Source: Thermodesulfobacteriota bacterium (GTDB lineage Bacteria; Desulfobacterota; Desulfobacteria; Desulfobacterales; C00003060). Taken from it: 64,000 nucleotides of DNA. Under the pieces are notes generated by a model, which made no database searches, was not told where the DNA came from, and saw only the letters and a list, made by a program, of their open reading frames with translations. The position numbers were made by a program, and so were the translations under genes. This document shows, piece after piece, positions 3,778 through 56,685 of the stretch. Position 1 is the stretch's first letter, and every line of letters begins with the position of its first letter. The stretch covers positions 142,104 to 206,103 of the forward strand of contig JAXHVD010000003.1 in assembly GCA_034189385.1 (NCBI GenBank), given 5' to 3'.

Positions 3778-5830
3778 TAGGAAAGGAACCATCTTGTCCC
3801 CCTTGCGTCGAAACATCACATACACTGTCCTACTGGCAGGGGCCGCCCTTTTTACCGGGGTCTGCGGGGGTCTCCTTTTCGCCCTCATGCACGATCTTCC
3901 GCAAATTCAGGGCCTTGACAGTTTCAAGCCCGCCGCGATCACACGGATCTATTCAGCCGACAGGCAACTGCTGGCCGAACTCTTTGTAGAAAAGCGTCAG
4001 CCTGTGCCCCTTGACGCAGTACCGGAGGATCTTAAGGCCGGGATCCTCGCCACGGAAGACGCCAAGTTCTATGACCACCCGGGAGTTGATCTGAAGGGCA
4101 TTGCCCGTGCCGTCATCAGAAACATCAGGGCCGGTGAATATGTCGAAGGGGCCAGCACCATTAGCCAGCAGCTGGCCAAGACGCTTTTTCTCACACCCCG
4201 AAAGACTCTGATCCGCAAATTCAAAGAAGCCTTTCTGGCCTTTCAGATTGAGCGCCGCTATACAAAAAACGAGATACTGGGACTCTATCTGAATCAGGTC
4301 TATTTCGGAAGCGGGGCCTACGGCGTGGAAGCTGCCGCGCAGATCTTTTTCGGAAAACCTGTCCGTGAACTGACCCTGGCCGAGTGCGCATTGATCGCGG
4401 GTATGCCCAAGTCGCCTTCGCGGTACTCACCCCTGGTCAACCCAGCTTTGGCCCTAAAACGGCGCTCGGTGGTCCTGGGACAGATGGCTCGCCATGGCCT
4501 CATTAGTAAAGAAGAGTTGATGGCTGCCAATACCTCGCCTCTTCATCTAGCTCACAAGAAAGAAACATCCATAAAGGCCCCCTATTTTGTGGCCTCTGTG
4601 GCGAAGCTCCTGGAAAAGGAGTTGGGCCAGGAAGCCCTGTATCAAAAGGGACTGACCGTATACACGACGCTAGACTATTCCATGCAGAACGCTGCTGAAG
4701 AAGCGGTAGCACAGGGGCTTAAAGAGCTCTCCGCACGTATGAAGATGGCAGGTTTGGCCCAAGAGCATCTGCCCCAAGCCGCCTTGGTCTGTCTAGATAC
4801 CAAGCGCGGAAGCATTCTCGCCATGGTGGGGGGCCGCAGCTTTGAAGAAAGCCGGTTCAACCGAGCCACCATGGCCAAGAGACAGCCAGGGTCGGCATTC
4901 AAACCCTTAGTCTATGCCCTAGCCTTGGAGAAGGGTTTTTGCCAAAACGACATGCTCTGGGACGGACCCGTGGTGTTTAAAGGCGCCCAAGAAGGCGAAG
5001 TCTGGATGCCACAGAATTTTTCAGAGGAATTCATGGGCGAGGTAACCCTTCGTCGGGCCCTGGCCCTGTCGCAGAACATCCCTGCTGTGAGACTCCTTAG
5101 CAAATTGGGACCTACGCGTGCTGTGGAGTTTGCATATAAGATGGGCATCACCTCACCCTTGGATCCGAACCTTTCCCTGGTTCTTGGAACCTCAGAGGTG
5201 ACACTCCTCGAACTAACAACAGCCTATGCTGTGTTCCCCAATGGCGGCATACGGACAAGACCCTTTGGCGTGCTGGAGGTACTGGAAAGGGAACGGTCCG
5301 TCTGGAGGCACAAGTCCCAGGCGCGGCCTGTCATCAGTCCTGAAACTGCAGCAATCATGACCGATATGCTTGAAGCCGTCGTACTGGAAGGCACTGCAAC
5401 GGCAGCACAGCCCATAGGTCGGCCATTGGCAGGAAAAACCGGGAGCACAGACAGCTACAAGGACGCCCTTTTTATCGGGTTTTCTCCAACCGTGGCCACG
5501 GGGGTGTGGGTCGGCCTGGATGATCATGGGACACTGGGTGACAAAGAAACAGGTGCCAAGGCTGCCCTGCCCATATGGATCGATTTCATGGAAAAAGCCC
5601 TCAGTGACCGCCCCTATTGTGATTTTGATCTGCCCCAAGGGGTGGTCCGAGTGCATATGGATACTGAATCCGGGCTCCTTGCTTCAGAGGGCAGTCCCAA
5701 CGCAGTTACTGCTTTGTTCAAGGAGGGCACGGAGCCGAAGCAGTACCACAGACGTGGTGCCAAGGGGCTCTTGGGAGGGCAGGGTAGGGGGACTTGGGAG
5801 CTTGGCAGCAGACTTACATCGCCGGAGTAG
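3770..5830 (+). CDS. mrcA: class A penicillin-binding protein (PBP1A-type transglycosylase/transpeptidase)
   Basis: Glycosyltransferase motifs EDAKFYDHPGVD, GASTISQQLAK and RKFKEAFLAFQIERRYTKNEILGLYLN are present. The transpeptidase part carries SAFKP and KTGST. The start is uncertain: TTG 3770 in the track, or TTG 3794 after AGGAAAGGA. Confidence 0.9.
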   Translation: MNPRKGTILSPLRRNITYTVLLAGAALFTGVCGGLLFALMHDLPQIQGLDSFKPAAITRIYSADRQLLAELFVEKRQPVPLDAVPEDLKAGILATEDAKFYDHPGVDLKGIARAVIRNIRAGEYVEGASTISQQLAKTLFLTPRKTLIRKFKEAFLAFQIERRYTKNEILGLYLNQVYFGSGAYGVEAAAQIFFGKPVRELTLAECALIAGMPKSPSRYSPLVNPALALKRRSVVLGQMARHGLISKEELMAANTSPLHLAHKKETSIKAPYFVASVAKLLEKELGQEALYQKGLTVYTTLDYSMQNAAEEAVAQGLKELSARMKMAGLAQEHLPQAALVCLDTKRGSILAMVGGRSFEESRFNRATMAKRQPGSAFKPLVYALALEKGFCQNDMLWDGPVVFKGAQEGEVWMPQNFSEEFMGEVTLRRALALSQNIPAVRLLSKLGPTRAVEFAYKMGITSPLDPNLSLVLGTSEVTLLELTTAYAVFPNGGIRTRPFGVLEVLERERSVWRHKSQARPVISPETAAIMTDMLEAVVLEGTATAAQPIGRPLAGKTGSTDSYKDALFIGFSPTVATGVWVGLDDHGTLGDKETGAKAALPIWIDFMEKALSDRPYCDFDLPQGVVRVHMDTESGLLASEGSPNAVTALFKEGTEPKQYHRRGAKGLLGGQGRGTWELGSRLTSPE

Positions 5831-5922: not shown

Positions 5923-6669
5923 CTAAACTGCTGCCATATTTCTTGGCTTGAGCAAATAGTCTGACTTGATGTGGCTCAGGGACCGGAAAATGTTTCCCTT
6001 GATCTTTTTGTTTGTCTCATAAAGACCGCTTAACATCTTCTTGATTTCACCGCGCTTCGATGTCCTGGCCGTAGGGCACGGGTTGGGAAAGAAGGGAAAG
6101 TCATGATCCTGTGCAAATCGATCAATGGCCTGTTCGTCAATATGGGCAAGGGGCCTAATGACGACCAGTTTTCCCTTAAAAAAGGGTTGGCACGGAACCA
6201 TGGTGCTGATCTCTCCACTATAGCACATGTTTAAGAAAAGCGTCTCGATAATGTCGTCCATGTTGTGCCCCAGGGCCAGCTTGTTGCAGCCCAGCTCGTC
6301 GGCCATTTCAAAGAGTCGCTTCCTTCGAAGGCGGGCGCACAGAAAGCAGGGGTTCTCCCGGTTTTCCTCGCTGTGGCTTCTTGTGCCGTAGTCCGTATAC
6401 TCCACTTTCAGACTGTAGCCCCTGTCCTTGCAGTATGCCTCGATGAGGGGTGCAGGGGCCCCTTTAAAGCCCAAGTCTATGTGAATGGCCTTGAGGGAGT
6501 AATGGATGGGAATGCGGGACAGGCGTTCATGGAGGATCCACATGAGGGTGAGGCTATCTTTTCCGCCAGACAACCCCACGGCGATCCGGTCCCCATCTGC
6601 TATCATGTCATAGTGGTGTATGGCCTGGCCAACCGAGCGCCGCACGGCCTTATCCCTAAAACGAGACAC
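5923..6669 (-). CDS. ttcA: TtcA-family tRNA 2-thiocytidine/PP-loop ATPase
   Basis: PP-loop GLSGGKDS, plus Cys motifs NPCFLCARLRR and PNPCP. Confidence 0.8.
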   Translation of the reverse strand: MSRFRDKAVRRSVGQAIHHYDMIADGDRIAVGLSGGKDSLTLMWILHERLSRIPIHYSLKAIHIDLGFKGAPAPLIEAYCKDRGYSLKVEYTDYGTRSHSEENRENPCFLCARLRRKRLFEMADELGCNKLALGHNMDDIIETLFLNMCYSGEISTMVPCQPFFKGKLVVIRPLAHIDEQAIDRFAQDHDFPFFPNPCPTARTSKRGEIKKMLSGLYETNKKIKGNIFRSLSHIKSDYLLKPRNMAAV

Positions 6670-16429: not shown

Positions 16430-16470
16430 ATTACTGTATTTCGGCACGAAAAATACAGTCTTCACCCCAT
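16430..16470 (+). promoter_or_regulatory. site A of the 41-bp bipartite motif
   Basis: ATTACT-gtatttcggcacgaa-AAATACAG-tcttc-ACCCCAT. See findings for the other four copies. Confidence 0.55.
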
Positions 16471-16626
16471 TTACATCTGACCCCACAAACCATAATTTTC
16501 AACCTGTACGGTGGTTCACAAAGATAGAAGGGAGGGATGGAAGTACCTGAGTTGGGCATCAACAAGAGGCTTTGATGAAGGTGAATGGACGAGACAAGCA
16601 GTCAACAAACAGAGGAGAAGGGAAAA

Positions 16627-16938
16627 ATGGACGTAAAAGACTATTGTGGTTCTATGAGCACGGAACTGATGGCTTGGAAGGCGAAAATGTACGACATCAC
16701 GCGCAGACTGGACAAATTGGGAAGCGCGGATAAAGAAAAGGTGCTTTCGCAAGTGGAGGACATGCATATCCTTGTGACGGAAATGGGTGACAGAATCGAT
16801 AAGCTCAACCGGGAATGCCCTTCCGAATGGAGCCCGGACAAGAATGCCATCGATAATGCCCATACAGACATGCGTGCCAAATACGAGAGCACCATGGAGT
16901 TCATCGGAAAGGCTGCTCCCGTATCAGTCCCCGGCTAA
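16627..16938 (+). CDS. hypothetical helical protein (about 103 aa)
   Basis: ATG 16627 follows GAGGAGAAGGG. The sequence is MDVKDYCGSMSTELMAWKAKMYDITRRLDKLG...; I recognise no family. The track ORF starts at 16585. Confidence 0.6.
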   Translation: MDVKDYCGSMSTELMAWKAKMYDITRRLDKLGSADKEKVLSQVEDMHILVTEMGDRIDKLNRECPSEWSPDKNAIDNAHTDMRAKYESTMEFIGKAAPVSVPG

Positions 16939-17108: not shown

Positions 17109-17151
17109 AAGACGAGGTGGAAAGATTCTCGGGCCTCGACAAATGAACAGG

Positions 17152-17179
17152 GCGGAGTCCACAGGACTCCGCTTTTTTT
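17152..17179 (+). terminator. rho-independent terminator
   Basis: GCGGAGTCC-aca-GGACTCCGC forms a perfect 9-bp stem followed by TTTTTTT. Confidence 0.8.
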
Positions 17180-17328: not shown

Positions 17329-17736
17329 ATGACCTTGTCCTTTTACCTGAAGTTGTATGTGCTCACGATACCGGTCTTCTTTGCCATCGACATCCTATGG
17401 CTCGGCATAGCAGCCAAAGACTTCTACCAAAAACACCTGGGTTCCCTTTTTCGCCCCAAGGTGGACTGGACCGCCGCCATTGTTTTCTATCTTATCTTTA
17501 TCGTTGGCATTCTGTTCTTCGCTGTTGTGCCGGCATTGGAAAGAGGCGCCTGGACGAGAGCGGTCATCTGGGGGGGGCTCTTTGGTTTCTTTACCTACGC
17601 GACCTATGACCTGACAAACCTTGCCACCTTAAAAGACTGGCCCGTGAAGGTGGTCGTGGTGGACATGATCTGGGGCATCTTCCTCTGCAGTACTGTTTCG
17701 GCCATCAGCTTTCACATCGGCAAATGGCTCGGTTGA
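17329..17736 (+). CDS. DUF2177-family membrane protein
   Basis: 135 aa with 4 TM helices: MTLSFYLKLYVLTIPVFFAIDILWLGIAAKDFY...TYATYDLTNLATLKDWP. Confidence 0.75.
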   Translation: MTLSFYLKLYVLTIPVFFAIDILWLGIAAKDFYQKHLGSLFRPKVDWTAAIVFYLIFIVGILFFAVVPALERGAWTRAVIWGGLFGFFTYATYDLTNLATLKDWPVKVVVVDMIWGIFLCSTVSAISFHIGKWLG

Positions 17737-17835
17737 CGACCCCTGTCTTTGGGGCAAGACGCATCCAGCCCTGCAGATGGTTGTGTGCCTATTCTTTATG
17801 CTTGGGCTATGGATCGTACCCGCTCCTCATGACAC

Positions 17836-19371
17836 ATGGAGAGGATTGTCCAAGGGGCAGACGTCACAGCGGCCATGTTTGCCCTCGGGCTGGGTCAACA
17901 CCGCATCAATAATAACCTTGACTCTCCTACTGGGGAATGGATGACGGCCCATTTGCAACAACGCGAAGCAAATCCCCAAGCCCTCGAACAGCCTGTTTCA
18001 TGGCCCAAAAGGCTGGCTTACGCTGCGCCAGCGTTCGCGCTGGCCGTCGTGGGCATTCCTGTTTACGTCTACATGCCCAAATTCTACATCGATGTAGTGG
18101 GCGTGCACATCACCGTTTTGGGTTATTTGGTCCTGGGCATGCGGGTTTTTGACGCTTTAACGGATCCCGCCATTGGCTTTCTATCGGACCGCACGAAGAC
18201 ACCCTTTGGCAGACGACGCCCCTTTATGGCCTTGGGATCCATCGCCTTGGCCGGGGCCATCTATCTGCTTTTCAACCCTCCCCACGGCTCCCCAACCTTT
18301 GAAACCGTGTGGTTCGGGATTCTCATGTTCGCCCTCTTTCTTTTCTGGACACTAGTGGTGGTCCCCTATGAATCCCTCGGCCCAGAGATCACCTTTGACT
18401 ATCACGAAAGGACAACGCTCTTTAGTCTCAGAGACGGGGCCCTCATTGCTGGCACCCTGGTGGCTGCAAGCTCCCCGGCAGGCATCACCTATCTCTTTGA
18501 TCTGCCAGGTGATGCCGCAGGAGAAAGGGCCAAGTTCTTCTGGATATCCCTTTGTTATGTGCCCCTTGTCATAGGGCTCTGCTGGTGGTGCGTTGTGGCC
18601 ACTCAGGAGATGGAACAAGGGATTCCGAGCCCGTCGTTTCGCCTTGAAAAAGGCATGAAAACCATGGCTCGAAACCGTCCCTTCGTGATCCTCTTGGTAT
18701 CTTACACGGTGAGTGCCTTTGGGAACAACCTGCCGGCCACCTTGATTCTCTTCTACGTGGAATATGTCCTCCAATCACAACAGGCCGATCTGTTTCTGCT
18801 TCTGTACTTTGTTGTTGGAATCCTGTTCCTTCCAGGGTGGATTCAGGTGTCTCACAAAATGGGCAAGAAGAGGGCCTGGATCCTCTCCATGGCCCTCAAT
18901 ACCGGGGCCTTTGTAGGGGTTTTCTTCCTGGGTCCCGGGGACGCTCACCTCTACGGTGTATTGGTGTGCCTCTCCGGTATTGGCTTTGGTGCGACCCTGG
19001 CGCTGCCGTCGGCCATGCAAGCAGACGTGATTGATTACGACGAACTGCTTTCCGGAAAAAGACGCGAGGGCCAGTATGTGGGATTCTGGTCTGTTTCCAA
19101 GAAGCTGGCCGCAGCGCTTGGCGTGGGCGCCGCTCTCGCCATCTTGGGCACGATGGGATATGAACCGGGAACGGAGCAATCGCCCAAAGTGATGCTGTCC
19201 CTTCGGGTACTGTATGCCTTGGTCCCCTCCCTGTGCAATCTGGCAGCCTTGCTCATTGCCTTGGCCTATCCTATCGATTTGCTTGCTCACGAAAAGATCA
19301 AACAGGCGATCGCCGAGAGAAAGTCGGGCCGTCCGGTGATCGATCCTATCAGGGAGAAACAATTGCCATGA
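17836..19371 (+). CDS. MFS transporter, GPH (MelB/YihO-like) family
   Basis: 12-TM profile with FDALTDPAIGFLSDRTKTPFGRRRPF. The start may instead be ATG 17941. Confidence 0.8.
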   Translation: MERIVQGADVTAAMFALGLGQHRINNNLDSPTGEWMTAHLQQREANPQALEQPVSWPKRLAYAAPAFALAVVGIPVYVYMPKFYIDVVGVHITVLGYLVLGMRVFDALTDPAIGFLSDRTKTPFGRRRPFMALGSIALAGAIYLLFNPPHGSPTFETVWFGILMFALFLFWTLVVVPYESLGPEITFDYHERTTLFSLRDGALIAGTLVAASSPAGITYLFDLPGDAAGERAKFFWISLCYVPLVIGLCWWCVVATQEMEQGIPSPSFRLEKGMKTMARNRPFVILLVSYTVSAFGNNLPATLILFYVEYVLQSQQADLFLLLYFVVGILFLPGWIQVSHKMGKKRAWILSMALNTGAFVGVFFLGPGDAHLYGVLVCLSGIGFGATLALPSAMQADVIDYDELLSGKRREGQYVGFWSVSKKLAAALGVGAALAILGTMGYEPGTEQSPKVMLSLRVLYALVPSLCNLAALLIALAYPIDLLAHEKIKQAIAERKSGRPVIDPIREKQLP

Positions 19372-20159
19372 ATCTGACGACACTTCTCTTGATAACGAAC
19401 CTGACAGCGGCACTGGCCTACATGGCCTGCCTCTGGCCCGTGAGTCTCCTAAAAAAGGATGCGAGTATTGCAGACATTTTCTGGGGCCTCGGATTTGTGA
19501 TGATCGCCTGGCTGAGTTTTTTTCTGACGGATGGATATGTGGTGAGGAAAATGCTCATCGTCTCCCTTACGAGCATCTGGGGAATCCGCCTGTTTCTCCA
19601 CATATTGCTGCGAAACAAGGGAAAAGGGGAAGACCCCCGTTATGTGGCCATGCGAAAAAGCCGCGGCAAGAAGTTCTGGTGGGTCAGCCTGTTCACCGTT
19701 TTTCTCTTGCAAGGTTTCCTACTCTGGGTCGTCTCCATGCCCCTTCAGCTCGGTCAGTTGGCCCCCCTTCCCGCGGCATTCACGTGGCTGGATGGGCTCG
19801 GCCTCTTCATTTGGACGGTGGGATTCACCTTCGAAGCGGTCGGCGACTGGCAACTCGCTCGGTTTCTAAAGAACCCTGAAAACCGGGGATCTGTGATGAA
19901 TAGAGGTCTTTGGGCTTACAGCAGACACCCCAACTATTTTGGCGAATCATTGATCTGGTGGGGTGTATACGTCATCGCCTTAGCTGCGCCTGGAACCTTT
20001 TGGGGCATCATTGGTCCGGCAACCATCACGTTCCTTTTGTTGAAAGTATCGGGCGTGCCCATGCTTGAGGAAACCCTTCGGGAGCAGCCTGAATACAGGG
20101 CCTACATAGAGAAAACGAGCGCCTTCTTCCCCTGGTTTCCACGCAAAGACAAACCATGA
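19368..20159 (+). CDS. DUF1295 (steroid-5-alpha-reductase/ICMT-like) membrane protein
   Basis: Starts at an ATGA overlap with the MFS stop. Contains YSRHPNYFGESLIWWG. Confidence 0.8.
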   Translation: MNLTTLLLITNLTAALAYMACLWPVSLLKKDASIADIFWGLGFVMIAWLSFFLTDGYVVRKMLIVSLTSIWGIRLFLHILLRNKGKGEDPRYVAMRKSRGKKFWWVSLFTVFLLQGFLLWVVSMPLQLGQLAPLPAAFTWLDGLGLFIWTVGFTFEAVGDWQLARFLKNPENRGSVMNRGLWAYSRHPNYFGESLIWWGVYVIALAAPGTFWGIIGPATITFLLLKVSGVPMLEETLREQPEYRAYIEKTSAFFPWFPRKDKP

Positions 20160-20356: not shown

Positions 20357-21676
20357 TCATGTGCTTTTTCCGGAAGAAGGAGGCAGTTCGGGCAAAATGG
20401 GCGTGCTGCGACAAAACGGCTTTGCCATAAGCATTTGCACATTGCCCAGATAGCGTTCTTCAAATCCCCCTTCGCAGTAACAAAGGTAATACTCCCACAG
20501 CCGGATAAAGGTATCAGAGTAGCCCAAGGCACGGACCTGTTCGATATTTTCAAAGAAGCGCTGCCGCCATGCCCGCAGCGTTTTCGCATAGTGGGGGGTT
20601 AAATCCTCCAAGTGAACGACGCGCAGATCCGTGGAGCGCGCCACAGCCAGGCACATGGCGGTAAGGGACGGAATGCAGCTGCCAGGGAAGATATAGCGTT
20701 TGACGAAATCAACGGATCGCTTGTGCTGATCGTATACGGCATCTGCGATGGTGATGGCCTGAAGAAGCATCATGCCGTCTCTTTTCAAGAGCCTGCTGCA
20801 ACACTGAAAAAAGGTCTCCAGAAATTGATGGCCAACCGCTTCGATCATCTCAATGGAAACCACTTTGTCATAGAGGCCCTCCAGATCGCGATAGTCTTTC
20901 AAAAGGAGGGTGACCCGGTCGCCCAATCCCTCGCCGTCAATGTATTCTTTGGCCCATTCGAATTGGGCGGGGGAAATGGTGGTGGTGGTGACCCGACAGC
21001 CGTAATGCTGGGCCGCATGCATGGCAAACCCGCCCCATCCGGTGCCGATCTCCAGGACATGATCAGAGGATTGTAGATCCAGTTTCAGGCAAATGCGGTC
21101 ATATTTGGCCACGGAGGCCTCTCTGAGGGTGGACGCCTCCGTTTCGAAAATCCCGCACGAATAGGTCATGGTATCATCCAAAAAGAGCTGGTAGAAATCG
21201 TTTCCCAGGTCGTAGTGTGCCACGATATTGGCCCTGCTCCCTGCCCTTGTATTTTTGTTGAGCCAGTGAAACCACTGATGTATGGGCTCCATGAACCGTC
21301 CCCATCCGCTATCCATCTTCTCAAAGATGTGGCGGTTTAGAACCATGATCCGTATGACCATGGTCAAGTCATCGGCGGACCAGTCGCCAGCCATGTAAGC
21401 CTCAGCCGCTCCGATGCTGCCGCCCCATAGGGCCCTTCGGTAAAAACGGGGGTGGTGGATCGTCACGACCGCACGAAGGGGAAAATCTTCTGAAGCCTTT
21501 CCAAAGGCAAGGCGCTCGCCATTATCCTCCAGGAGAAGCTCACCAATGTCCACATCCTCCAATAGGGCCATCACCATCCTTTTGGCCAGGCGATTCAGAG
21601 GCCCCCGGACTAAGGCATGAGGTGGAGCCGTTCTGTCCGTCTCCGCGGGAATGATGGATGTTCTCATGATGTTCAT
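20357..21676 (-). CDS. cyclopropane-fatty-acyl-phospholipid synthase family SAM methyltransferase
   Basis: Contains AHYDLGNDFY, the SAM site VLEIGTGWGGFA, and YLCYCEGGFEERYLGNVQM. Confidence 0.9.
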   Translation of the reverse strand: MNIMRTSIIPAETDRTAPPHALVRGPLNRLAKRMVMALLEDVDIGELLLEDNGERLAFGKASEDFPLRAVVTIHHPRFYRRALWGGSIGAAEAYMAGDWSADDLTMVIRIMVLNRHIFEKMDSGWGRFMEPIHQWFHWLNKNTRAGSRANIVAHYDLGNDFYQLFLDDTMTYSCGIFETEASTLREASVAKYDRICLKLDLQSSDHVLEIGTGWGGFAMHAAQHYGCRVTTTTISPAQFEWAKEYIDGEGLGDRVTLLLKDYRDLEGLYDKVVSIEMIEAVGHQFLETFFQCCSRLLKRDGMMLLQAITIADAVYDQHKRSVDFVKRYIFPGSCIPSLTAMCLAVARSTDLRVVHLEDLTPHYAKTLRAWRQRFFENIEQVRALGYSDTFIRLWEYYLCYCEGGFEERYLGNVQMLMAKPFCRSTPILPELPPSSGKST

Positions 21677-22446
21677 GCCTCCTTGCCAGACAGTCGCTTG
21701 GCAGGATGCGTGTAAACCGGGGCCCCTTTCCACTTGAGGCGAAGGGCCTGCCAGTATATCATGGCCACGACCTTCAATGTCATGGGGGGGTAGGACAGCA
21801 ACACCCGTGCGAGGTTGTTGCTATTCAGCTCGCGCCGCTCCAAAGAGAGGGTGGCGTCAAAAAGCTTCTGCCTGACATCATGGAGGTTGAAATGAACCCG
21901 AATCTTCTGGTCCGGCTCCCGAAACCGCCAGTCATAATGCATCGCCATATCCATGAAAGGCGAAACGTGGAAACTTTTCACAAACCGAAACTGCTTCCAT
22001 CCCTTCAGGCCATGTTCATTCGCGGATTCTCCTAAGACATAGCAATGTTCCTCACCCCATGGGGTGTTATGGACTTCAGCGACAATCGTCTCCACCTTAT
22101 TCCCGGACCCATCGTAACAGTAGTAAAAGCTCACAGGATTGAAGTTATGCCCAAAATACCTTAGGTGGGTCAGCAACCGAATGGGCCCGGAAGGACGCCC
22201 TCCGAGCTCCTCCTCCACAAGATCCCTTACCGCACGATCTAAGGGAAGGCGCGGGTCCCCCAAATGGTCCCTCCGACGGAAATAGGCTAGATTGGGTGTG
22301 CCCACAGACCAGAACAGACGGCCATCAAAAACCCCGTCCAGTTCCGAAAGGTCCAGGTACACCATGAACAGCCTGTACCAAAAGGCGTTGGTCACCGGCC
22401 GGAAACGACGGTGGCGAACATGACCCTCGTAGATGCAGCTCACCAT
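21673..22446 (-). CDS. DUF1365 protein
   Basis: MVSCIYEGHVRHRRFRPVTNAFWYRLFMVYLDLSEL is a typical DUF1365 N-terminus. It has 4-nt overlaps with both neighbours. Confidence 0.85.
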   Translation of the reverse strand: MVSCIYEGHVRHRRFRPVTNAFWYRLFMVYLDLSELDGVFDGRLFWSVGTPNLAYFRRRDHLGDPRLPLDRAVRDLVEEELGGRPSGPIRLLTHLRYFGHNFNPVSFYYCYDGSGNKVETIVAEVHNTPWGEEHCYVLGESANEHGLKGWKQFRFVKSFHVSPFMDMAMHYDWRFREPDQKIRVHFNLHDVRQKLFDATLSLERRELNSNNLARVLLSYPPMTLKVVAMIYWQALRLKWKGAPVYTHPAKRLSGKEA

Positions 22447-22448
22447 GG

Positions 22449-23693
22449 CTAGAGCGTCTTTCCAAATGGCCGGCACACGGCAAGGGCGCTCTTCACACCG
22501 TCCTCGTGGAAGCCAAAACCCCAATAGGCCCCGCAAAAAGAGGTGCGATTGACGCCGTTGATCTCCTCATGACCCTCCTGCGCCTTCAGGCTCTGAGGAG
22601 TGTACACCGGATGATGATAGACCATCTGGTCAATCACACGTGCGGGGTCGATTCCCCCTGGATAATTAAGCGATACACAAAACTCCACAGGGGCTTTCAG
22701 ACTTTGCAGGATACTCATGTCGTAGGTGACCGCCACCCTGCCGGTGTGGGCCTTTGGCACATGGTAGTTCCAGCTCGCCCAGCACTCCCTCTTCTTGGGC
22801 AGTAACGTCTCATCGGTGTGAAGAACGGTCACGTTCTCCTGATAGGGCATGGCGCTGAGAATGCGGGCCTCTTCTTCTGAAGGGTCGGCCAGCAACGCCA
22901 GGGCCTGGTCACTGTGGGTGGCCATGACCACGTGATCAAAATGCTCGGGACCACCCCCCCCATGGACTACCTCCACGCGGTCTTCATGACGCGTTACTCT
23001 TTTTACCGCACAGGAAAGGCGGATGCGGTCTCGAAACCCCCTGGTGAGCTCATGAACATAATTCCTGGACCCGCCCCTTATGACGAGCCACTGGGGTTGA
23101 TCGGTCACGTTCAAAAACCCGTGGTTGTCAAAAAACCGGACAAAGAAACGGGCCGGAAAGTTCCAGAATTGATCAGGATCCGCAGACCAGATGGCCGCCC
23201 CCATGGGGATGATAAAGTCATGTATAAAGGCTTGGGAGTATCCCTCGGCCTTCAGATAGTCTCCCAAAGCCCTGTCATCTCCTCTCTCTCCAAGGATTTT
23301 TTTAGACCGCCTTCTAAAGCGGAAAATGTCCAATACCATCCGGTAGAAGGCAGGCCGAAAGAGATTCTTCCTCTGGGCGAAAAGGCTATTCAATGAACTG
23401 GGGCTATACTCCAAGCCACTTGTTTCCGACGTGACGCTGAAACTCATCTTAGACGGCTGCCAGGCAACAGCTAAGCGCTTCAAGAGTTTCAGGAAATTTG
23501 GATAGGTCTTTTCATTGAAAACGATAAAACCGGTGTCCACGGCATAGGTTTTACCGGCCTTCTCCACATCCACGGTGTGCGTGTGGCCGCCCACATAGTC
23601 GTTGGCCTCAAAGACGGTGATCTCATGGTCCTCACAAAGAAGATAGGCGCACACCAATCCCGATATCCCTGAACCGATAATGGCAATCTTCAT
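22449..23693 (-). CDS. NAD(P)/FAD-dependent oxidoreductase (amine-oxidase-like)
   Basis: MKIAIIGSGISGLVCAYLL...VFEANDYVGGHTHT is a dinucleotide-binding fold. Confidence 0.85.
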   Translation of the reverse strand: MKIAIIGSGISGLVCAYLLCEDHEITVFEANDYVGGHTHTVDVEKAGKTYAVDTGFIVFNEKTYPNFLKLLKRLAVAWQPSKMSFSVTSETSGLEYSPSSLNSLFAQRKNLFRPAFYRMVLDIFRFRRRSKKILGERGDDRALGDYLKAEGYSQAFIHDFIIPMGAAIWSADPDQFWNFPARFFVRFFDNHGFLNVTDQPQWLVIRGGSRNYVHELTRGFRDRIRLSCAVKRVTRHEDRVEVVHGGGGPEHFDHVVMATHSDQALALLADPSEEEARILSAMPYQENVTVLHTDETLLPKKRECWASWNYHVPKAHTGRVAVTYDMSILQSLKAPVEFCVSLNYPGGIDPARVIDQMVYHHPVYTPQSLKAQEGHEEINGVNRTSFCGAYWGFGFHEDGVKSALAVCRPFGKTL

Positions 23694-23735
23694 CTCTGAC
23701 TACCAAAAAGCGCTGTGGGTAGAACCATCCCTTTA

Positions 23736-24732
23736 TTATCCCGTCCCCTCTTTAACACCAGGGGCTAGGGCAGGCTTGTATATGTGGTCAGGCACCGGCC
23801 TCAGGTCCCAAACCATGCCAAGAAAGGCCATGAGCCGGAGCAGATAGTACGTGATGTCGATCTCCCACCCAAAAAAAACCCTGACGGGCCGAAATGGCAT
23901 AATGGTGATGGTTGTTGTGCCATCCCTCGCCCAAGGTGATAAGTGCCAGAAGGGCGTTGTCGCGACTTGTGTCCGGGGTGTCGTATCGTCTGTTGCCGAT
24001 CATATGATCCAGCGAGTTGATCGTAAAGGTTCCGTGGAACAGGGCCACAGTAGAAATCAGAAAACCCCAGACAAACATCTGCGCACCGTCTGTATTTAGC
24101 TGCGGTTGGGTCTCTGCCATCATCTCACCCAGCGCAAAGAGGGATAGGGCCAGAATAAACGGAATCACGGTGTCAAACCGGTTGATCCAGACCAGCTCTG
24201 GAAACTTGAACCAGTCTTTCACATAGCGTTTTCTCGTGGGAAAATTTCGCCTGGAGGTTATCCAGCCCACGTGGCTCCACCAAAAGCCGTGCAGAGAAGG
24301 GGAATGAATGTCTGCCTCTTGGTCGGCAAACCGGTGGTGGTGGCGATGATGGGCCGCCCACCAGAGCGGCTCCCGCTGAACAGAGGCGTTTCCGGCCACC
24401 GCAAAGAGGAATTGCCAGAAGCGGTTGGTCTTAAAGGCACGATGGGAGAAATACCGGTGGTAGAATCCCGTGATGGCAAACATGCGTAACACATATAGCG
24501 CCAATGCCACCCCCACTGCAGTCCAGCTCCATCCCACCACAAATACCAAGAGGCAAGATAGGTGCAGAAGTGCGAATGGGGCCACCCGCAACCAGTCTAT
24601 ACCGGAAGCACGTTCATCCTCTGTGGCCCCTGCACCTGCTTCAGAGTCGAACCATCGGACAATCGAAAGTAGGGCATCTGAGTGACTCGTCTTCTCTCTT
24701 CGTTTTGCCTGCCTGTTCATTTTACATTTCAA
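23736..24732 (-). pseudogene. membrane delta-9-type fatty acid desaturase with an apparent 1-nt insertion near the 3' end
   Basis: His boxes HRYFSH, HHRHHH and HNNHHH are present. The track ORF ends aberrantly (..QGFFWVGDRHHVLSAP..). Removing one G in tgggtggg (about 23866-23873) restores ..GFFWWEIDITYYLLRLMAFLGMVWDLRPVP.., with the stop at 23736-23738. Confidence 0.8.
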
Positions 24733-24777
24733 TAGACATATTTCGCAATAAGCGTAGCACTTGAACGGAAAAAATGA

Positions 24778-24818
24778 ATAGGGTCTTATGTGTATTTAGG
24801 TGTCAAGAAGACCGTAAT
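24778..24818 (-). promoter_or_regulatory. site F of the 41-bp bipartite motif
   Basis: Minus strand: ATTACG-gtcttcttgacacct-AAATACAC-ataag-ACCCTAT, 46 nt upstream of the desaturase start codon. Confidence 0.5.
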
Positions 24819-26713: not shown

Positions 26714-26754
26714 AATACCCTATTGATCATAAACAAATACACACTTTACCCCAT
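26714..26754 (+). promoter_or_regulatory. site D of the 41-bp bipartite motif
   Basis: AATACC-ctattgatcataaac-AAATACAC-acttt-ACCCCAT, 84 nt upstream of the Sec-peroxiredoxin start. Confidence 0.5.
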
Positions 26755-26837: not shown

Positions 26838-27356
26838 ATGAACAGATTCATACCGTTTATCAGCATACTACTCATGGCAATCACACCGTCTTTGGCATTG
26901 GGCCTCCATATCGGTGACACGGCCCCTGTATTCCAAGCCAGCTCTACAGAGGGAACAATCCGTCTCGTCGACTACCTGGGCAAGAAAAACGTCGTCCTGG
27001 CACTCTATTTTGCGGCTTTTACGTCTGTCTGAACGGACGAGCTGATCGCTTTCCAGCGGGATCTGGAAAAATTCGAGCACGAAGATGCTATCATTTTGGG
27101 CGTAAGCAAAGATAGTATGAAAACAAGCAAACGGTTTGCCAAGGAATACGGGATCGGTTTTCCTTTGATATCAGATAGCGACAAGAAAATCAGACGACTC
27201 TATGGAGGAGGGCGCGTTACCTATCTCATCGACAAGAACGGCGTGATCAGATTCATTCAAAAGGGGGTCCCTGACAACAACCTGTTCCTGAAGGAATTGA
27301 AGAGACTACGTGACGCCAACATGGCCATTCAAGAAGGGGGCAGCACAACAGATTGA
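26838..27356 (+). CDS. exported Bcp/PrxQ-type peroxiredoxin with selenocysteine at the peroxidatic position (in-frame TGA 27030-27032)
   Basis: ORFs 26838..27032 and 27096..27356 are in one frame. The joined context is VVLALYFAAFTSV-U-TDELIAFQRDLEKF, compared with the FTPGCTxE peroxiredoxin active site. The N-terminus has a signal peptide. Confidence 0.8.
27044..27063 (+). promoter_or_regulatory. weak SECIS-like hairpin after the peroxiredoxin UGA
   Basis: gatcgct-ttcc-agcgggatc forms a stem with a GG bulge, starting 12 nt after the UGA. Confidence 0.3.
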
Positions 27357-27434
27357 AGCGCCCTGCAGCAAGCTGTTATGCAACGGGCTCTGTTGCGGTT
27401 CAACGGAAGCATACAAAGGGAGGTGACAAGCGAC

Positions 27435-27761
27435 ATGGAAGACGCCACTATCATACGCGTTTCTGCGCAAGAGGCAAAAGAGATGGTTGAGGCAGAATCA
27501 GGTCTGCTGGTCTGTGCCTATGATGACGAAGACAAATTCAAGCGAAATCATCTATCAGGCGCGATATCGCTTGCCGAATTCAGATCAAGACTCACATCCA
27601 TCCCCCGAGACCGAGAAATCGTCTTCTACTGTGCCTGACCCAAAGAAGCGAGTGCTGCCGGGCGCGCAGTGGAATACTTGAAGATGGGCTACGACAATGT
27701 GAAGGTCTTGGGTGGCGGTGTCACGGGCTGGAAAGAGGCGGGATATCCCATTGAGGATTAA
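27435..27761 (+). CDS. single-domain rhodanese with selenocysteine in the active-site loop (in-frame TGA 27636-27638)
   Basis: The ORF ends at ..EIVFYCA-TGA. The same frame continues PKEASAAGRAVEYLKMGYDNVKVLGGGVTGWKEAGYPIED-TAA (27759-27761), which is the conserved rhodanese C-terminal half. ATG 27435 follows AGGGAGGTG. Confidence 0.75.
27653..27671 (+). promoter_or_regulatory. SECIS-like hairpin after the rhodanese UGA
   Basis: tgctgc-cgggcgc-gcagtg forms a 6-bp stem (including G-U pairs) with a GG-containing loop, 15 nt after the UGA. Confidence 0.4.
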
Positions 27762-28955: not shown

Positions 28956-28996
28956 ATTACTCCCTTTTTCAGTGCAAAATACAGTTTTTACCCCAT
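28956..28996 (+). promoter_or_regulatory. site B of the 41-bp bipartite motif
   Basis: ATTACT-ccctttttcagtgca-AAATACAG-ttttt-ACCCCAT, 97 nt upstream of ATG 29093. Confidence 0.5.
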
Positions 28997-29092
28997 ATGC
29001 CACCCCGGAGGTTCGTGCCATGCTCTCCCATGAGACGAAGTCTTAGATAGCAGGAAAAAAATTCCATACGATTGCCATGAGGAGGTGCTAAG

Positions 29093-29473
29093 ATGAATCT
29101 GAAAGACTACTTTGAACAGGCTAAAGGACTCGGGGCGCTTGCTACGGCAGATTCAGAGGGAAAGGTGGATGTGGCTGTCTATTCCCGGCCCCACGTGATG
29201 GATTCTGAGACCGTGGCCTTTGTTATGCGAGATCGCCTGACCCATCATAACCTCCAGTCCAACCCCCATGCCGCTTATCTCTTCAAGGAAGCGGGGGAAA
29301 AATACGTTGGAAAGCGGCTTTTCTTAACCAAGATTCGCGAAGAGCAGGATACTGATTTGGCTTACGAACTCAGGAGAAGAAAATACCCCGACGACAAAAA
29401 AGAACCGCTCTTCCTGGTCTTTTTTCGTATTGACCAGATCCTGCCGCTTGTGGGTCCCGGAGACGGTGAGTAG
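29093..29473 (+). CDS. pyridoxamine 5'-phosphate oxidase-like (split-barrel flavin-binding) protein
   Basis: 126 aa with LGALATADSEGKVDVAVYSRP...HHNLQSNPHAAYLF. Confidence 0.75.
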   Translation: MNLKDYFEQAKGLGALATADSEGKVDVAVYSRPHVMDSETVAFVMRDRLTHHNLQSNPHAAYLFKEAGEKYVGKRLFLTKIREEQDTDLAYELRRRKYPDDKKEPLFLVFFRIDQILPLVGPGDGE

Positions 29474-29483
29474 GAGGCCATCA

Positions 29484-29945
29484 TTGGGGCAGCGTTTCAG
29501 AGTCTTCTTTCACTTCCTGGCGTTGTCCCTCATGTTGTCAAACTGCTCAGCAACTAAACCAGATGATTTGGGATGTACTGACGGCAGGCTATCTCCTTGT
29601 CCAGATTCACCGAATTGCGTCTCTTCGCAGAGTTCAGACAAGGCCCACTATATAGAGCCTCTTACCTATAGGGGAACGTTGACAGAGGCCAGGAAGGCCC
29701 TAGTGTCGGTGATTGCTCGATGGCCTCACAGTGAGATAGTCCAGGCGACGGATGACTATGTCCGTGCGGAGTTCACCTCCAGGTTCTTTGGTTTTGTCGA
29801 TGACGTTGAGTTTTGCATGGATGATGATCTGAACATGATTCATGTCCGATCGTCATCACGCGTGGGCTATTTTGATTTTGGGGTAAACAGAAAAAGGATT
29901 GAGCGCCTTCGAGCCAAGTTTGCGGCACCGAGAACAGAGGATTGA
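29484..29945 (+). CDS. DUF1499 lipoprotein (copy 2)
   Basis: TTG 29484 lies 5 nt after AGGAGG. Contains the lipobox LMLSNC, SPCPDSPNCVSSQSSD and VDDVEFCM..IHVRSSSRVGYFDFGVNRKRIE. It is a paralogue of 24939..25367. Confidence 0.8.
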   Translation: MGQRFRVFFHFLALSLMLSNCSATKPDDLGCTDGRLSPCPDSPNCVSSQSSDKAHYIEPLTYRGTLTEARKALVSVIARWPHSEIVQATDDYVRAEFTSRFFGFVDDVEFCMDDDLNMIHVRSSSRVGYFDFGVNRKRIERLRAKFAAPRTED

Positions 29946-29948
29946 GAC

Positions 29949-30665
29949 ATGGCCAGAAAACCAAGTTACGAAGCGCTGCAACAGCGTGTCAAGGAATTGG
30001 AAAAGGAAGCCGGTGAGCGCCTTCGCATGGAGCGGGAGTTGCTCAAGCTCTCCCACGCGGTGAATCATAGTCCCAGTGCCATCATGATCACAGATGCTCA
30101 TGGGATCATCGAATATGTGAATCCGAAATTCGTGGACATGACCGGTTTTACCGCCCAAGAAGTCCTGGGAAAGAATGCCGGGGATTTGGGTGAACAATCG
30201 GCTGAAGAAGAGGAGAAGATGTGGCAGGTCCTTAAGTCGGGCGGCGAGTGGCGAGGTGAATTTCTGAACAAAAAGAAAGATGGCAAACGTTACTGGGAAC
30301 GGGCGTCCATTTCATCCATGAAGGACCCCGACGGTGGGATTACCCATTACGTAAAGGTGGCTGAAGACATCACGGACCTCAAACGCGCACAACAGGAGTT
30401 AAGAGAGAGCCAGGAGGCGTTATATGAACATCAAAAGCGTCTAGGGATATTGAAATTCGCCAATGACATGGCCCTCCGGCTCATGCATGAGTTGCGAAAT
30501 CCACTGGTATCGATTGGTGGCTTTTCTAAAAGGATTGCCGATGGTCACTATGGGGAAGATAACTTGACCAAATACACGAAAATCATATTCGAAGAGGCCA
30601 AGAAACTCGACCAGGCCGTCAGTGAGTTGCTTGTGCAACTAGAGACTACTGCCCACAAGGCATAG
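29949..30665 (+). CDS. PAS sensor fused to a HisKA/DHp domain, no ATPase domain
   Basis: A PAS S-box (SPSAIMITDAHGIIEYVNPKFVDMTGFTAQEVLGKN...) is followed by the H-box MHELRNPLVSIGG. The protein ends 50 aa later. Confidence 0.8.
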   Translation: MARKPSYEALQQRVKELEKEAGERLRMERELLKLSHAVNHSPSAIMITDAHGIIEYVNPKFVDMTGFTAQEVLGKNAGDLGEQSAEEEEKMWQVLKSGGEWRGEFLNKKKDGKRYWERASISSMKDPDGGITHYVKVAEDITDLKRAQQELRESQEALYEHQKRLGILKFANDMALRLMHELRNPLVSIGGFSKRIADGHYGEDNLTKYTKIIFEEAKKLDQAVSELLVQLETTAHKA

Positions 30666-30701
30666 GATCTCTTTACCTCCTTGCTGAAGGGACAATGCCC
30701 C

Positions 30702-31478
30702 ATGACTCCAGCTGTTTTTGTCTCCCATGGCATGCCAGCCATTGCTGTCCAGCCAGAACCGACGCACTATTTTTTTCGGGAGCTTGGACAGACATTGGGT
30801 CGCCCTAAGGCTGTAGTCTGCGTTTCTGCCCATTGGGAAGCAGTCCGCCCCCTTGTGACAGGCACAAGCGCGCCGCAGACGATACACGATTTCTCCGGGC
30901 CCCCCATTCTTTTCGAAAAAGACTATCCAGCGCCTGGCAACCCGGACCTCGCCCAGGATGCAGTGGCCTTGTTGACCCAGGCGGGCATTGATGCCGCCAC
31001 CGATCCTTCCCGAGGCCTTGATCATGGCGTGTGGGTGCCACTCATACTCATGTATCCGGAAGCAGATATCCCCGTGGTGCAGATTTCCGTTCAGACAGAG
31101 CTCGATCCACAGCATCATCTGAAGCTGGGAAGGGCCCTGCAACCCCTCAGAGAAGGCGGGGTATTGGTTCTGGGAAGTGGTGGTGCCACCCACAACCTGC
31201 CGGAGATACACCAATACAGAGTTCACTCCCGCCCGGCAGAGTATGCTCTAGACTTCGACACCTGGCTGGAAGAGGCCATCCTCGGGGGCCGGGAGGATGC
31301 CCTGCTCAACTACAAAGAAGAGGGCCCTTCAGCCGCAAGGAACCATCCCTATCCTGCCGAGCACTTTTTGCCGCTCTTTGTCCCTCTCGGGGCTGCAGGG
31401 CAGGGGGCAACGGGCCGCTTACTCCACAAGGGATTCATGTATGGCGTCCTATCCATGGCCGCCTATGCCTGGGATTGA
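30702..31478 (+). CDS. class III extradiol ring-cleavage dioxygenase (4,5-DOPA dioxygenase/YgiD-like)
   Basis: Contains VFVSHGMP, VCVSAHWE, IHDFSG and LDHGVWVPL. Confidence 0.85.
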   Translation: MTPAVFVSHGMPAIAVQPEPTHYFFRELGQTLGRPKAVVCVSAHWEAVRPLVTGTSAPQTIHDFSGPPILFEKDYPAPGNPDLAQDAVALLTQAGIDAATDPSRGLDHGVWVPLILMYPEADIPVVQISVQTELDPQHHLKLGRALQPLREGGVLVLGSGGATHNLPEIHQYRVHSRPAEYALDFDTWLEEAILGGREDALLNYKEEGPSAARNHPYPAEHFLPLFVPLGAAGQGATGRLLHKGFMYGVLSMAAYAWD

Positions 31479-34543: not shown

Positions 34544-34766
34544 CTCAATCGTTGGTAACGTTCAAAACTTGCGGAAAAGGCCTTAAGCAGGCAGTTAGAG
34601 GGATAGGGATGATCGCTTAACGCAGGCATACAGCCATTGCCATCTGCACCAATGGCATAGGCTACCTAAAGGCATTGGATGCCGAAGAGACGTGATTATC
34701 CCTATCCCGAAGTCGGTTGTCCAGAAATCCACTAAGTCAACACTTTTGAACGTTACTCAATCGTTG
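34544..34766. mobile_element. MITE-like element: 11-bp direct repeats flanking 12-13-bp terminal inverted repeats and nested internal palindromes
   Basis: CTCAATCGTTG (34544-54) is followed by GTAACGTTCAAAA (34555-67). At the other end, TTTTGAACGTTAC (34744-56) is followed by CTCAATCGTTG (34756-66). Internal inverted repeats are GGGATAGGGAT/ATCCCTATCCC (34600-10/34698-708) and GCCATTG/CAATGGC. Confidence 0.45.
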
Positions 34767-56047: not shown

Positions 56048-56088
56048 AATACTGTCCAATTCTTTTGAAAATACAGCCATAACCCCAT
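56048..56088 (+). promoter_or_regulatory. site C of the 41-bp bipartite motif
   Basis: AATACT-gtccaattcttttga-AAATACAG-ccata-ACCCCAT, 148 nt upstream of the USP start. Confidence 0.5.
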
Positions 56089-56235
56089 ATACGAACCCCA
56101 TTTTCCTGCCTATATTCTGGACAAATGATGGGATCTGAAGACCCCGGCGCCACTGCCGTGGGAACAAGCCGATACAACGGGACCTGAGGGATTGATCGGC
56201 AAAAGGATCGTGTATCCCATCGAAGGGGGTGAAAA

Positions 56236-56685
56236 ATGATGGACATCAAGAAGATCTTATGGCCAACGGACTTTTCTGAGAATTCAAATGCGGCTCTCGA
56301 TTATGTGTTGTCTCTTACCACAAAGTATGGTGCAGAGATCTACCTGCTATACGTGGCAGAAGACCTCACGGACTATCGCGAATGGTATGGTGAACTGGGA
56401 TCAGACCATGCCCAGAAGATTCGAGATTGGGAGATTCCCAAAGCGGAAAAGGCCATGGAGAGTATTTGCCGAACGGAGTTGAAGGGATGCCCCATGTTTC
56501 ACAGACTGGTCGTCGTGGGTGATCCCGCACAAAAGATCCTAGAGACGGCAAAGCAGGAAGAGATAGACGTCATCGTCATGGCAACACTTGGAAGGAGCGG
56601 ACAGTTTCAAATCGGTAGCGTCACCGACAAGATAGTCAAGAATTCTCCAGTTCCCGTTTGGACGGTCCGGCCCATCAAACGTTAA
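56236..56685 (+). CDS. universal stress protein (UspA family)
   Basis: Contains KKILWPTDFSENS, DVIVMATLGRSG and GSVTDKIVKNSPVPVWTV. Confidence 0.9.
   Translation: MMDIKKILWPTDFSENSNAALDYVLSLTTKYGAEIYLLYVAEDLTDYREWYGELGSDHAQKIRDWEIPKAEKAMESICRTELKGCPMFHRLVVVGDPAQKILETAKQEEIDVIVMATLGRSGQFQIGSVTDKIVKNSPVPVWTVRPIKR

Follow-up and report, generated by a model that had tools for sequence, protein, structure and literature searches.

Among described promoters served by a response regulator of the NarL family, those of DevR carry obligatory tandem in-phase boxes, for example at -42.5 and -63.5, to which the protein binds cooperatively, from a conserved primary to a weak secondary box, the Dev box itself being an 18-20-bp palindrome with an essential G5 and C7 (PMC3177182). 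DevR recruits RNA polymerase via region 4 of sigmaA and the C-terminal domain of the polymerase alpha subunit (alpha-CTD) (PMC13486717). The element considered here is a 41-bp motif, WTACB-N15-AAATACAS-N5-ACCCYAT, found five times in a 64,000-nt stretch of DNA (the window) from a Thermodesulfobacteriota bacterium of the order Desulfobacterales (assembly GCA_034189385.1, contig JAXHVD010000003.1, positions 142,104 to 206,103). The five repeats are a genuine, oriented, intergenic cis-regulatory motif, and their placement suggests that they are probably a tandem binding array for a NarL/FixJ-type response regulator, situated at about -75 to -35 of a sigma70-type promoter.

The likeness to DevR/DosR of Mycobacterium tuberculosis has several parts. 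The candidate regulator is of the NarL family and has DevR among its closest solved relatives; at least two tandem in-phase sites lie about 21-22 bp apart, the proximal one abutting the -35; the primary site is conserved and its secondary partner poorly so; and universal stress proteins are found in the regulon, DevR/DosR responding to a redox or gas signal via PAS/GAF kinases. The motif consensus here (AAATACAGT-N4-ACCCYAT) is, in contrast, unrelated to the Dev box, so that the architecture alone is shared, and the system belongs to another phylum, with HisKA_3 kinases carrying MASE3/PAS domains and with a conserved CheY-like partner.

With NarL/NarP the system shares the fold of the regulator, the HisKA_3 class of kinase and a TAC or yAC core in every box, as in the NarL heptamers, whereas the boxes fit neither TACYYMT nor the 7-2-7 inverted repeat and form a 22-bp direct repeat with a third box. 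The regulator lies outside NarL proper, scoring about 160 bits (159.8-160.1) with the NCBIfam NarL model against a cut-off of 250; its best NCBIfam models are PRK15369, MctR and NarL, and it stays under every equivalog cut-off. In the case of VraR/LiaR, VraR is the best-scoring solved relative of the regulator (5hev, E 1e-42), the other closest structures being NarL, DevR (3c3w, E 7e-32) and DesR; VraR itself binds a primary site upstream and a further one close to the -35. A linked regulator with a receiver (REC) domain and a LuxR/GerE-type helix-turn-helix (HTH), an adjoining HisKA_3 kinase and sites that abut the -35 in helical phase are all present, as in the class of promoters dependent on NarL/FixJ-type regulators. 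The system is a separate member of this kind, and belongs to neither the NarL nor the DevR/DosR regulon.

By its target families, which include a cfaS-like methyltransferase, a flavin amine oxidase and DUF1365, with photolyases as neighbours, the system also resembles the extracytoplasmic-function (ECF) system sigmaE-ChrR of Rhodobacter, Pseudomonas and Vibrio. In Proteobacteria cfaS, flavin amine oxidase and photolyase are part of the conserved sigmaE-ChrR singlet-oxygen regulon, whose promoter is TGATCC-N16-CGTA (PMC5507510). That promoter, with up to 2 mismatches, has 44 matches in the window against 43.6 expected, none of them at the relevant promoters, and no sigma/anti-sigma pair (rpoE-chrR) was found among the annotated open reading frames (ORFs) of the window; what stands before these genes differs, being apparently a two-component regulator site before a sigma70-type promoter. 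A first reading of the window's sequence (hereafter the initial annotation) had called the motif undescribed, and we have likewise found no published description of it: literature searches on the motif strings, on NarL-type regulators in Desulfobacterota and on MASE3 systems in sulfate reducers returned nothing relevant, and the regulator map of Desulfovibrio vulgaris holds no matching motif (PMC3333781).

The motif in the window and across Desulfobacterota

The five sites of the initial annotation prove to be a complete list. The full pattern matches at 16431 (+), 24778-24817 (minus strand), 26715 (+), 28957 (+) and 56049 (+), against 0 matches in 100 dinucleotide-preserving shuffles of the window; the 20-nt core with at most 2 mismatches returns only the same five sites (0.28 expected); and a weight matrix built from independent loci likewise finds only these above 8 bits, with the scores given in Table 1 and a shuffle maximum of 5.5. 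At 3 mismatches the core is found 8 times where 3.55 are expected, which leaves the three extra sites within chance. All five copies are intergenic and oriented toward the adjacent gene, 46-157 nt before its start codon, as had been claimed, and the annotations of the genes downstream are also borne out. The flanks of the copies are unrelated, the similarity being confined to the motif columns, and an Rfam scan of the window gave 0 matches, so that a known RNA element is discounted along with a mobile repeat.

The full pattern was also scanned against a collection of one genome per species (GTDB, 596 Gb), where it occurs at no fewer than 114 loci. Among the matches listed, 93 are labelled Deltaproteobacteria, Desulfobacterota or Thermodesulfobacteriota, with Desulfobacterales, Syntrophales, Desulfatiglandales, Desulfomonile and Syntrophobacterales represented, and two more, from an 'uncultured bacterium' and an Acidobacteriota metagenome-assembled genome (MAG), have the full architecture. 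The other 19 listed loci are in scattered taxa, about 26 being estimated by chance for a pattern of roughly 35 bits in a collection of this size. Copies lie outside called ORFs in 84 of 95 cases (88%) in the Desulfobacterota set, compared with 29% of random positions in the same loci, while 11 of the 19 in other taxa lie inside ORFs; an equal frequency inside genes, which the initial annotation had named as speaking against a regulatory motif, is thus not what is found. The motif is conserved across orders of Desulfobacterota beside unrelated genes. On the complete chromosome CP070769.1 (Desulfobacterales bin233), one site adjoins the regulator gene (locus L091) and at least four others occur elsewhere (L042, L052 and two in L205), one of the sites on this chromosome lying upstream of an ortholog of the gene at site A of the window. 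The initial annotation had defined a regulon by its five copies; the motif is in fact common and lineage-wide, and its target set broad and variable.

Five matches in Firmicutes (L015, L022, L027, L113 and L114, from Paenibacillus, Bacillus, Oceanobacillus and Veillonella) lie inside ORFs and have in common a longer, coding-looking string, CCAAATACAGT(A/G)TG(T/A)ACCCCAT…AAATG(C/A/T)GG(C/T)TGTGG; apparently a conserved stretch of protein-coding sequence has been picked up here by chance, with no relation to the regulatory motif.

An alignment of 97 non-redundant copies, mostly from Desulfobacterota genomes and numbered from the first base of the 41-mer, shows conservation in columns that the search had not set: an A-run at -2 to 2, (T/C)GT at 6-8 and a T-run at 10-14, then T/G at 30, TT at 32-33 and C/T at 34. 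Beyond the third box, T42 is present in 87 of the 97, followed by T/G at 43, A/C at 44 and C at 45, and further on come gG at 62-63, T64 in 62 copies, A65 in 70 and T69 in 56. These columns spell a -35 hexamer TTtACn at 41-46, which shares its first T with the end of ACCCCAT; after a spacer of 17 nt comes a -10 hexamer TAaaaT at 64-69. When the orthologous regulator-adjacent promoters are excluded, TAnnnT still begins at position 64 in 26 of the remaining 77 copies and at 65 in nine, against a background per offset of 0.9 +/- 1.0 (maximum 5). Since -35 and -10 hexamers follow at a fixed distance, the motif cannot be equated with the promoter and would be an upstream factor-binding array. The conserved element is accordingly longer than the 41 bp first assigned to it, taking in the A-run before box 1, the TT after box 2, the TTaC after ACCCCAT and the -10 hexamer 22 nt further on.

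Boxes 1 and 2 form a 22-bp direct repeat, AAATACnGTnTTy (AAATACAGT), to which is added a third box, yACCCYAT. The proximal unit, made up of AAATACAGT, four variable bases (consensus nTTy) and ACCCYAT, is well conserved; the distal unit, 22 bp or two helical turns upstream, is conserved in its first half only (AAATACnGT). If transcription starts about 7 nt after the -10, the centres of the units fall near -44.5 and -66.5. Two details of the initial annotation have to be amended: the TAC boxes 1 and 2 are 22 rather than 21 bp apart, start to start, and the 'B' (not A) in box 1 shuts out the base that is the consensus elsewhere (AAATACAGT). In loci selected by the regulator protein, and hence unbiased with respect to the motif, the consensus is aAAATACaGtatT-N9-aAAATACAGt.TtcACCCTATTTACCAt-N12-TtAGTAAAGT, with box 3 reading ACCYTAT and not strictly CCCCAT. 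At L017 (about 6461-6500, +) and L083 (minus strand) an extra AAATACA box stands halfway from box 1 to box 2, at about 11 bp from either. Such spacing suggests that all boxes would face the same side of the helix, and that three or four regulator sites would be present at some promoters. A palindromic operator, as the perfect 9-bp inverted repeat of site A might have indicated, was rejected, the boxes fitting a 22-bp direct repeat better across genomes.

The candidate regulator, its module and the target genes

When the ORFs around the motif copies were clustered, one neighbour family dominated: a protein of about 218 aa with REC and GerE (LuxR-type HTH) domains by Pfam, encoded divergently and 25-215 nt upstream of the motif. 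Its orthologs (at least 55% identity) occur in 13 of the approximately 95 motif-selected loci, where about 0.15 would be estimated by chance for a single-copy gene, while the next-largest neighbour clusters have at most four members and are enzymes such as superoxide dismutase (SOD). The motif next to the regulator sits before the gene for a CheY-like receiver of 130-140 aa, and in five loci (L037, L048, L085, L102 and L200) the regulator has as neighbour a HisKA_3 + HATPase kinase with PAS, GAF, MASE3 or HAMP domains. OxyR/LysR, LitR/CarH and ECF regulators, which the gene content had also brought to mind, were rejected, as no such gene is linked to the motif.

The converse test began from 80 metagenome loci chosen by alignment of the regulator protein alone (57-73% identity). 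Among the 77 with at least 100 nt of upstream sequence, 40 have the core of the motif, with no more than 2 mismatches, in the 400 nt that precede the regulator start; shuffles of the same zone average 0.26 and reach 2 at most. Of these 40 matches 34 are divergent from the regulator; six are on the '+' strand, at least one of them (L183) being the same divergent site read on the other strand. A weight-matrix site above 15 bits is present in 56 of the 77; the matrix was partly trained on regulator-selected loci, with at least 14 of the positives outside the training set. The CheY-like receiver gene is divergent from the regulator in 49 of the 65 loci that have enough upstream sequence, and a HisKA_3 kinase with PAS, GAF or MASE3 was detected in 35 of the 80, usually convergent and downstream of the regulator, many contigs being too short to tell.

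The initial annotation had offered, as one of two options, a tandem operator for a regulator encoded outside the window. This option agrees with the behaviour of the motif and with a tblastn search of the window with the regulator, which gave no match; the regulator-kinase-receiver module most likely lies elsewhere in the genome. By exact-protein look-ups, contigs of metagenome SRR24907504 are 100% identical to the window, and relatives 96% identical to it occur in contigs of ERZ27252236, JGI 3300031111 and SRR8554445. The exact sequence of one regulator, P0001, was found only in these last three samples, the same three that hold the 96% relative of the site A locus, which points, circumstantially, to a single population. 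From the JGI metagenome of the 96% relative comes a locus (L144) with the full module, consisting of CheY-like receiver, motif promoter, regulator and MASE3-PAS-HisKA_3 kinase, and with an adjacent OsmC gene. At L200, a module from the window's close relative, an OsmC/Ohr-family (peroxiredoxin-like) gene at 4789-5187 (-) directly follows the MASE3-PAS-HisKA_3 kinase, a position which fits an oxidative-stress role.

Among 83 first genes downstream of the motif in other genomes, receiver domains are found 8 times, Fe/Mn SOD with a twin-arginine (Tat)-type leader 4 times, and amine oxidase, nuoA, Na+/H+ exchanger, cold-shock protein and KhpA twice each; two 30-member subsets add single cases of Ni-SOD, rubrerythrin/ferritin, universal stress protein, YceI, COX_ARM, SCO1/SenC, FBPase and others. 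Defence against oxygen and reactive oxygen species (ROS) is the largest coherent theme and yet a minority of the targets, and therefore 'oxidative stress' is a label that we infer. Almost no homologs of the window's own targets were found among the collected loci. For the 103-aa gene at site A, the 96% relative has retained the motif upstream, as has bin233 (70% protein identity; 55.7 bits; flanks unrelated), while four other homologs, of 85, 75, 66 and 61% identity, lack it. Membership of the regulon is plastic.

Proposed mechanism and its alternatives

The sequence of events would be as follows. A HisKA_3 kinase of the PAS/MASE3 type would phosphorylate the regulator, which would then bind the proximal unit and, cooperatively, the distal one; by contacting sigma region 4 and the alpha-CTD it would recruit RNA polymerase to otherwise weak promoters. 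The CheY-like receiver, as the most conserved target, might serve as a phosphate sink for feedback. In the window five stress units would be driven in this way: the lipid-modification operon, the putative selenocysteine (Sec) peroxiredoxin with the rhodanese, the PNPOx/DUF1499/LigB unit, the universal stress protein and the 103-aa unknown protein. We infer activation by the regulator, with oxygen or oxidative stress as the signal. The oxidative or light-stress character that the initial annotation saw in the downstream genes is supported by the gene content.

A number of points weigh against this proposal. The regulator is put forward as the presumed binder from genetic linkage alone, about 27% of its orthologs are without a detectable adjacent motif, and its recognition helix is nearly invariant among orthologs, which leaves no co-variation of protein and motif to compare. 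Its presence in the strain of the window is indicated, circumstantially, via the co-occurring 96% relative. The orientation bias across genomes is modest (70% co-directional with the gene vs. 56%, by crude gene calls), and targets are conserved patchily, the motif standing before one of the five homologs of the 103-aa gene at 61-85% identity. Within the window a generic sigma70 scan (at least 9 of 12 matches) calls none of the five promoters, and at site D an acceptable -10 hexamer is missing; the promoters proposed there follow from the cross-genome geometry and not from the local sequence alone. Finally, a protein bound right up to the -35 is compatible with repression too.

That last point leads to a repressor operator, at which the NarL-type regulator or another factor would block RNA polymerase at the -35 until a signal releases it. 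Box 3 does abut the -35 hexamer, overlapping it by one base, and the cross-genome -35 (TTtACt, 4/6) and -10 (TAaaaT or TAAAGT) are not especially poor. However, the array reaches 40 bp upstream of the -35 and leaves the spacer, the -10 and the start uncovered, which is the usual place of an activator and may be compared with the -42.5 and -63.5 of DevR; and in the window the -35 hexamers of sites B, C, D and F (Table 1) are poor, which, with the silence of the generic scan, fits dependence on an activator. We regard repression as unlikely. The motif might also be bound by a different transcription factor, the locus of regulator and CheY-like receiver being merely the most conserved member of the regulon, as could be argued from the purely positional link between regulator and motif and from the regulator orthologs that have no motif beside them. 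This we hold to be decidedly improbable, as no other DNA-binding protein family is recurrent near the motif, and a regulator divergent from a promoter that bears its own site is the standard arrangement for two-component systems.

An alternative-sigma promoter was the other option of the initial annotation, and in that case ACCCCAT(WT) might be the -10 for a factor resembling sigma32 (RpoH), for which the boxes upstream would supply the -35 or UP region. The sigma32 consensus is CCCCATnT at -10 and CTTGAAA about 13-15 nt upstream as the -35, with the start just downstream; CCCCAT(A/T)T is indeed found at three of the window's five sites, and at site C it is preceded, 12 nt upstream, by TTGAAA, a likeness to the groE geometry of E. 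coli. The resemblance fails elsewhere: among the unbiased, regulator-adjacent sites the usual box 3 is ACCCTAT or ACCTTAT, so that the CCCC run is lost; TTGAAA is not conserved and the columns of a sigma32 -35 are without information; the conserved AAATACAG is only 5 nt from box 3, too close for a -35; a separate TAnnnT stands at a fixed 22 nt downstream of ACCCCAT, and the predicted -35/17-nt/-10 promoter is canonical; and the targets are not chaperones or proteases. We consider a sigma32 promoter very improbable. For fragments of a mobile or repetitive extragenic palindromic (REP)-like repeat, or for chance matches, nothing speaks beyond the repetition itself. The initial annotation had foreseen that the copies might be pieces of a longer mobile repeat, and they are alike only in the motif columns; unrelated flanks, the expectation of no chance matches, intergenic and gene-oriented copies, conservation across orders of Desulfobacterota and the lack of any Rfam match make this explanation hardly credible. 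Mobile, REP and miniature inverted-repeat elements were rejected also on the 88% intergenic share and the fixed geometry to the promoter.

A larger view is possible, though we offer it tentatively: an undescribed two-component system, in which a MASE3/PAS HisKA_3 kinase works with a NarL-type regulator and a CheY-like feedback partner on a tripartite operator of its own, may be the master switch of oxygen and photo-oxidative defence across much of Desulfobacterota, having taken over the cfa/DUF1365/amine-oxidase set that sigmaE-ChrR controls in Proteobacteria. It would then exemplify one stress gene set wired to different regulators by phylum, an ECF sigma in one case and a two-component regulator in the other. 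Most of the motif-carrying Desulfobacterota are known only from metagenomes, and gene regulation there is essentially unmapped; what is gained is a defined operator, a candidate regulator-kinase-receiver module and a first list of targets, including Fe/Mn and Ni SODs, peroxiredoxin, rubrerythrin or ferritin, universal stress proteins, lipid-modifying enzymes and terminal-oxidase-related genes, with which the sensing and survival of oxygen and oxidative stress in strict anaerobes becomes testable. The mechanism proposed is conventional; what the system offers is a gain for annotation and physiology and not a new principle.

Features of the window

The sites, predicted promoters and target genes are collected in Table 1. 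The promoter of site A was read off the sequence at the fixed cross-genome distance of -35 and -10. For the other sites, transcription is predicted to begin near 29031, 56123 and 26789 on the plus strand and near 24743 on the minus strand.

Table 1. Motif copies, predicted promoters, target genes and associated features, in window coordinates
Feature	Position	Strand	Description
Site A	16430..16470	+	Box 1 ATTACTGTATTT, box 2 AAATACAGT, box 3 TCACCCCAT; 43.0 bits, strongest in window
Predicted promoter of site A	16470..16498	+	-35 TTTACA (16470-16475), 17-nt spacer, -10 TAATTT (16493-16498); predicted start near 16505
Site A target	16627..16938	+	103-aa protein without Pfam domain; family of 345 proteins in Desulfobacterales MAGs
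Terminator-like hairpin	17149-17175	both	12-bp stem with T-runs, between 103-aa gene and DUF2177
DUF2177, MFS and DUF1295 genes	17329-20159		Downstream of site A target
Site F	24778..24818	-	ATTACGGTC...AAATACACA...GACCCTAT; 32.4 bits
Predicted promoter of site F	24751..24778	-	-35 TTCATT (24778-24773), 16-nt spacer, -10 TACGCT (24756-24751); positions from cross-genome geometry
Site F target operon	20357..24732	-	Fatty-acid desaturase, FAD amine oxidase, DUF1365, cyclopropane-fatty-acid-synthase-like methyltransferase
Site D	26714..26754	+	15.9 bits, weakest; TTGTGG at -35 position; no good TAnnnT at expected place
Site D target	26838..27761	+	Secreted peroxiredoxin with in-frame TGA (27030-27032), then rhodanese with in-frame TGA (27636-27638)
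Site B	28956..28996	+	40.5 bits; weak hexamers TATGCC, 17 nt, CATGCT (29019-29024)
Site B target operon	29093..31478	+	PNPOx-like protein, DUF1499, PAS-HisKA protein without ATPase domain, LigB-type dioxygenase
Site C	56048..56088	+	37.8 bits; predicted promoter TATACG (56088-56093), 17 nt, TATATT (56111-56116)
Site C target	56236..56685	+	Universal stress protein

At site A the hairpin that follows the 103-aa gene lets the transcript possibly stop before the DUF2177-MFS-DUF1295 genes, which may therefore be a separate unit. A LexA SOS box (CTGT-N8-ACAG, the gamma-proteobacterial consensus) was considered for the same site, where ACTGTATTT-N9-AAATACAGT reads CTGT-N17-ACAG, and was rejected for its wrong spacing. 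Just 3' of site F a generic sigma70-like match, TTGCGA-18 nt-TAAAAT at 24748-24719 (-), runs across the TTG annotated as the desaturase start; this match could represent a second promoter, constitutive in nature, and the gene may in truth begin with the ATG at 24720.

The two in-frame TGA codons behind site D are putative selenocysteine codons, the one in the peroxiredoxin being at the position of the peroxidatic cysteine (…FTSV*TDE…) and the one in the rhodanese in the active-site loop (…FYCA*PKE…). In the operon of site B, the PAS + HisKA protein (29949-30665, +) has 238 aa and no HATPase_c domain, and, since it is of the HisKA class rather than HisKA_3, is unlikely to be the cognate kinase of the NarL-type regulator. 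Next to none of the five sites was a transcription factor gene found among the annotated ORFs of the window.

The neighbourhood of the sites also contains two photolyase-family genes, a second amine oxidase, a second DUF1499, DUF2177, DUF1295 and a Nudix hydrolase, and looks like a photo-oxidative-stress island. Between 16000 and 35500 there are paralogous pairs of DUF1499, FAD amine oxidase, PNPOx-like and photolyase-family genes, only some members of each carrying the motif. In the intergenic region between a photolyase-related operon (32974-34527, minus strand) and a PNPOx-like gene (34901, +) are two exact, divergent copies of TTGAACGTTAC (in extended form TTTTGAACGTTAC), at 34555-34565 (-) and 34746-34756 (+), where 0.4 would be expected in the window; they may be a separate regulatory site for the photolyase genes, which are themselves without the main motif.

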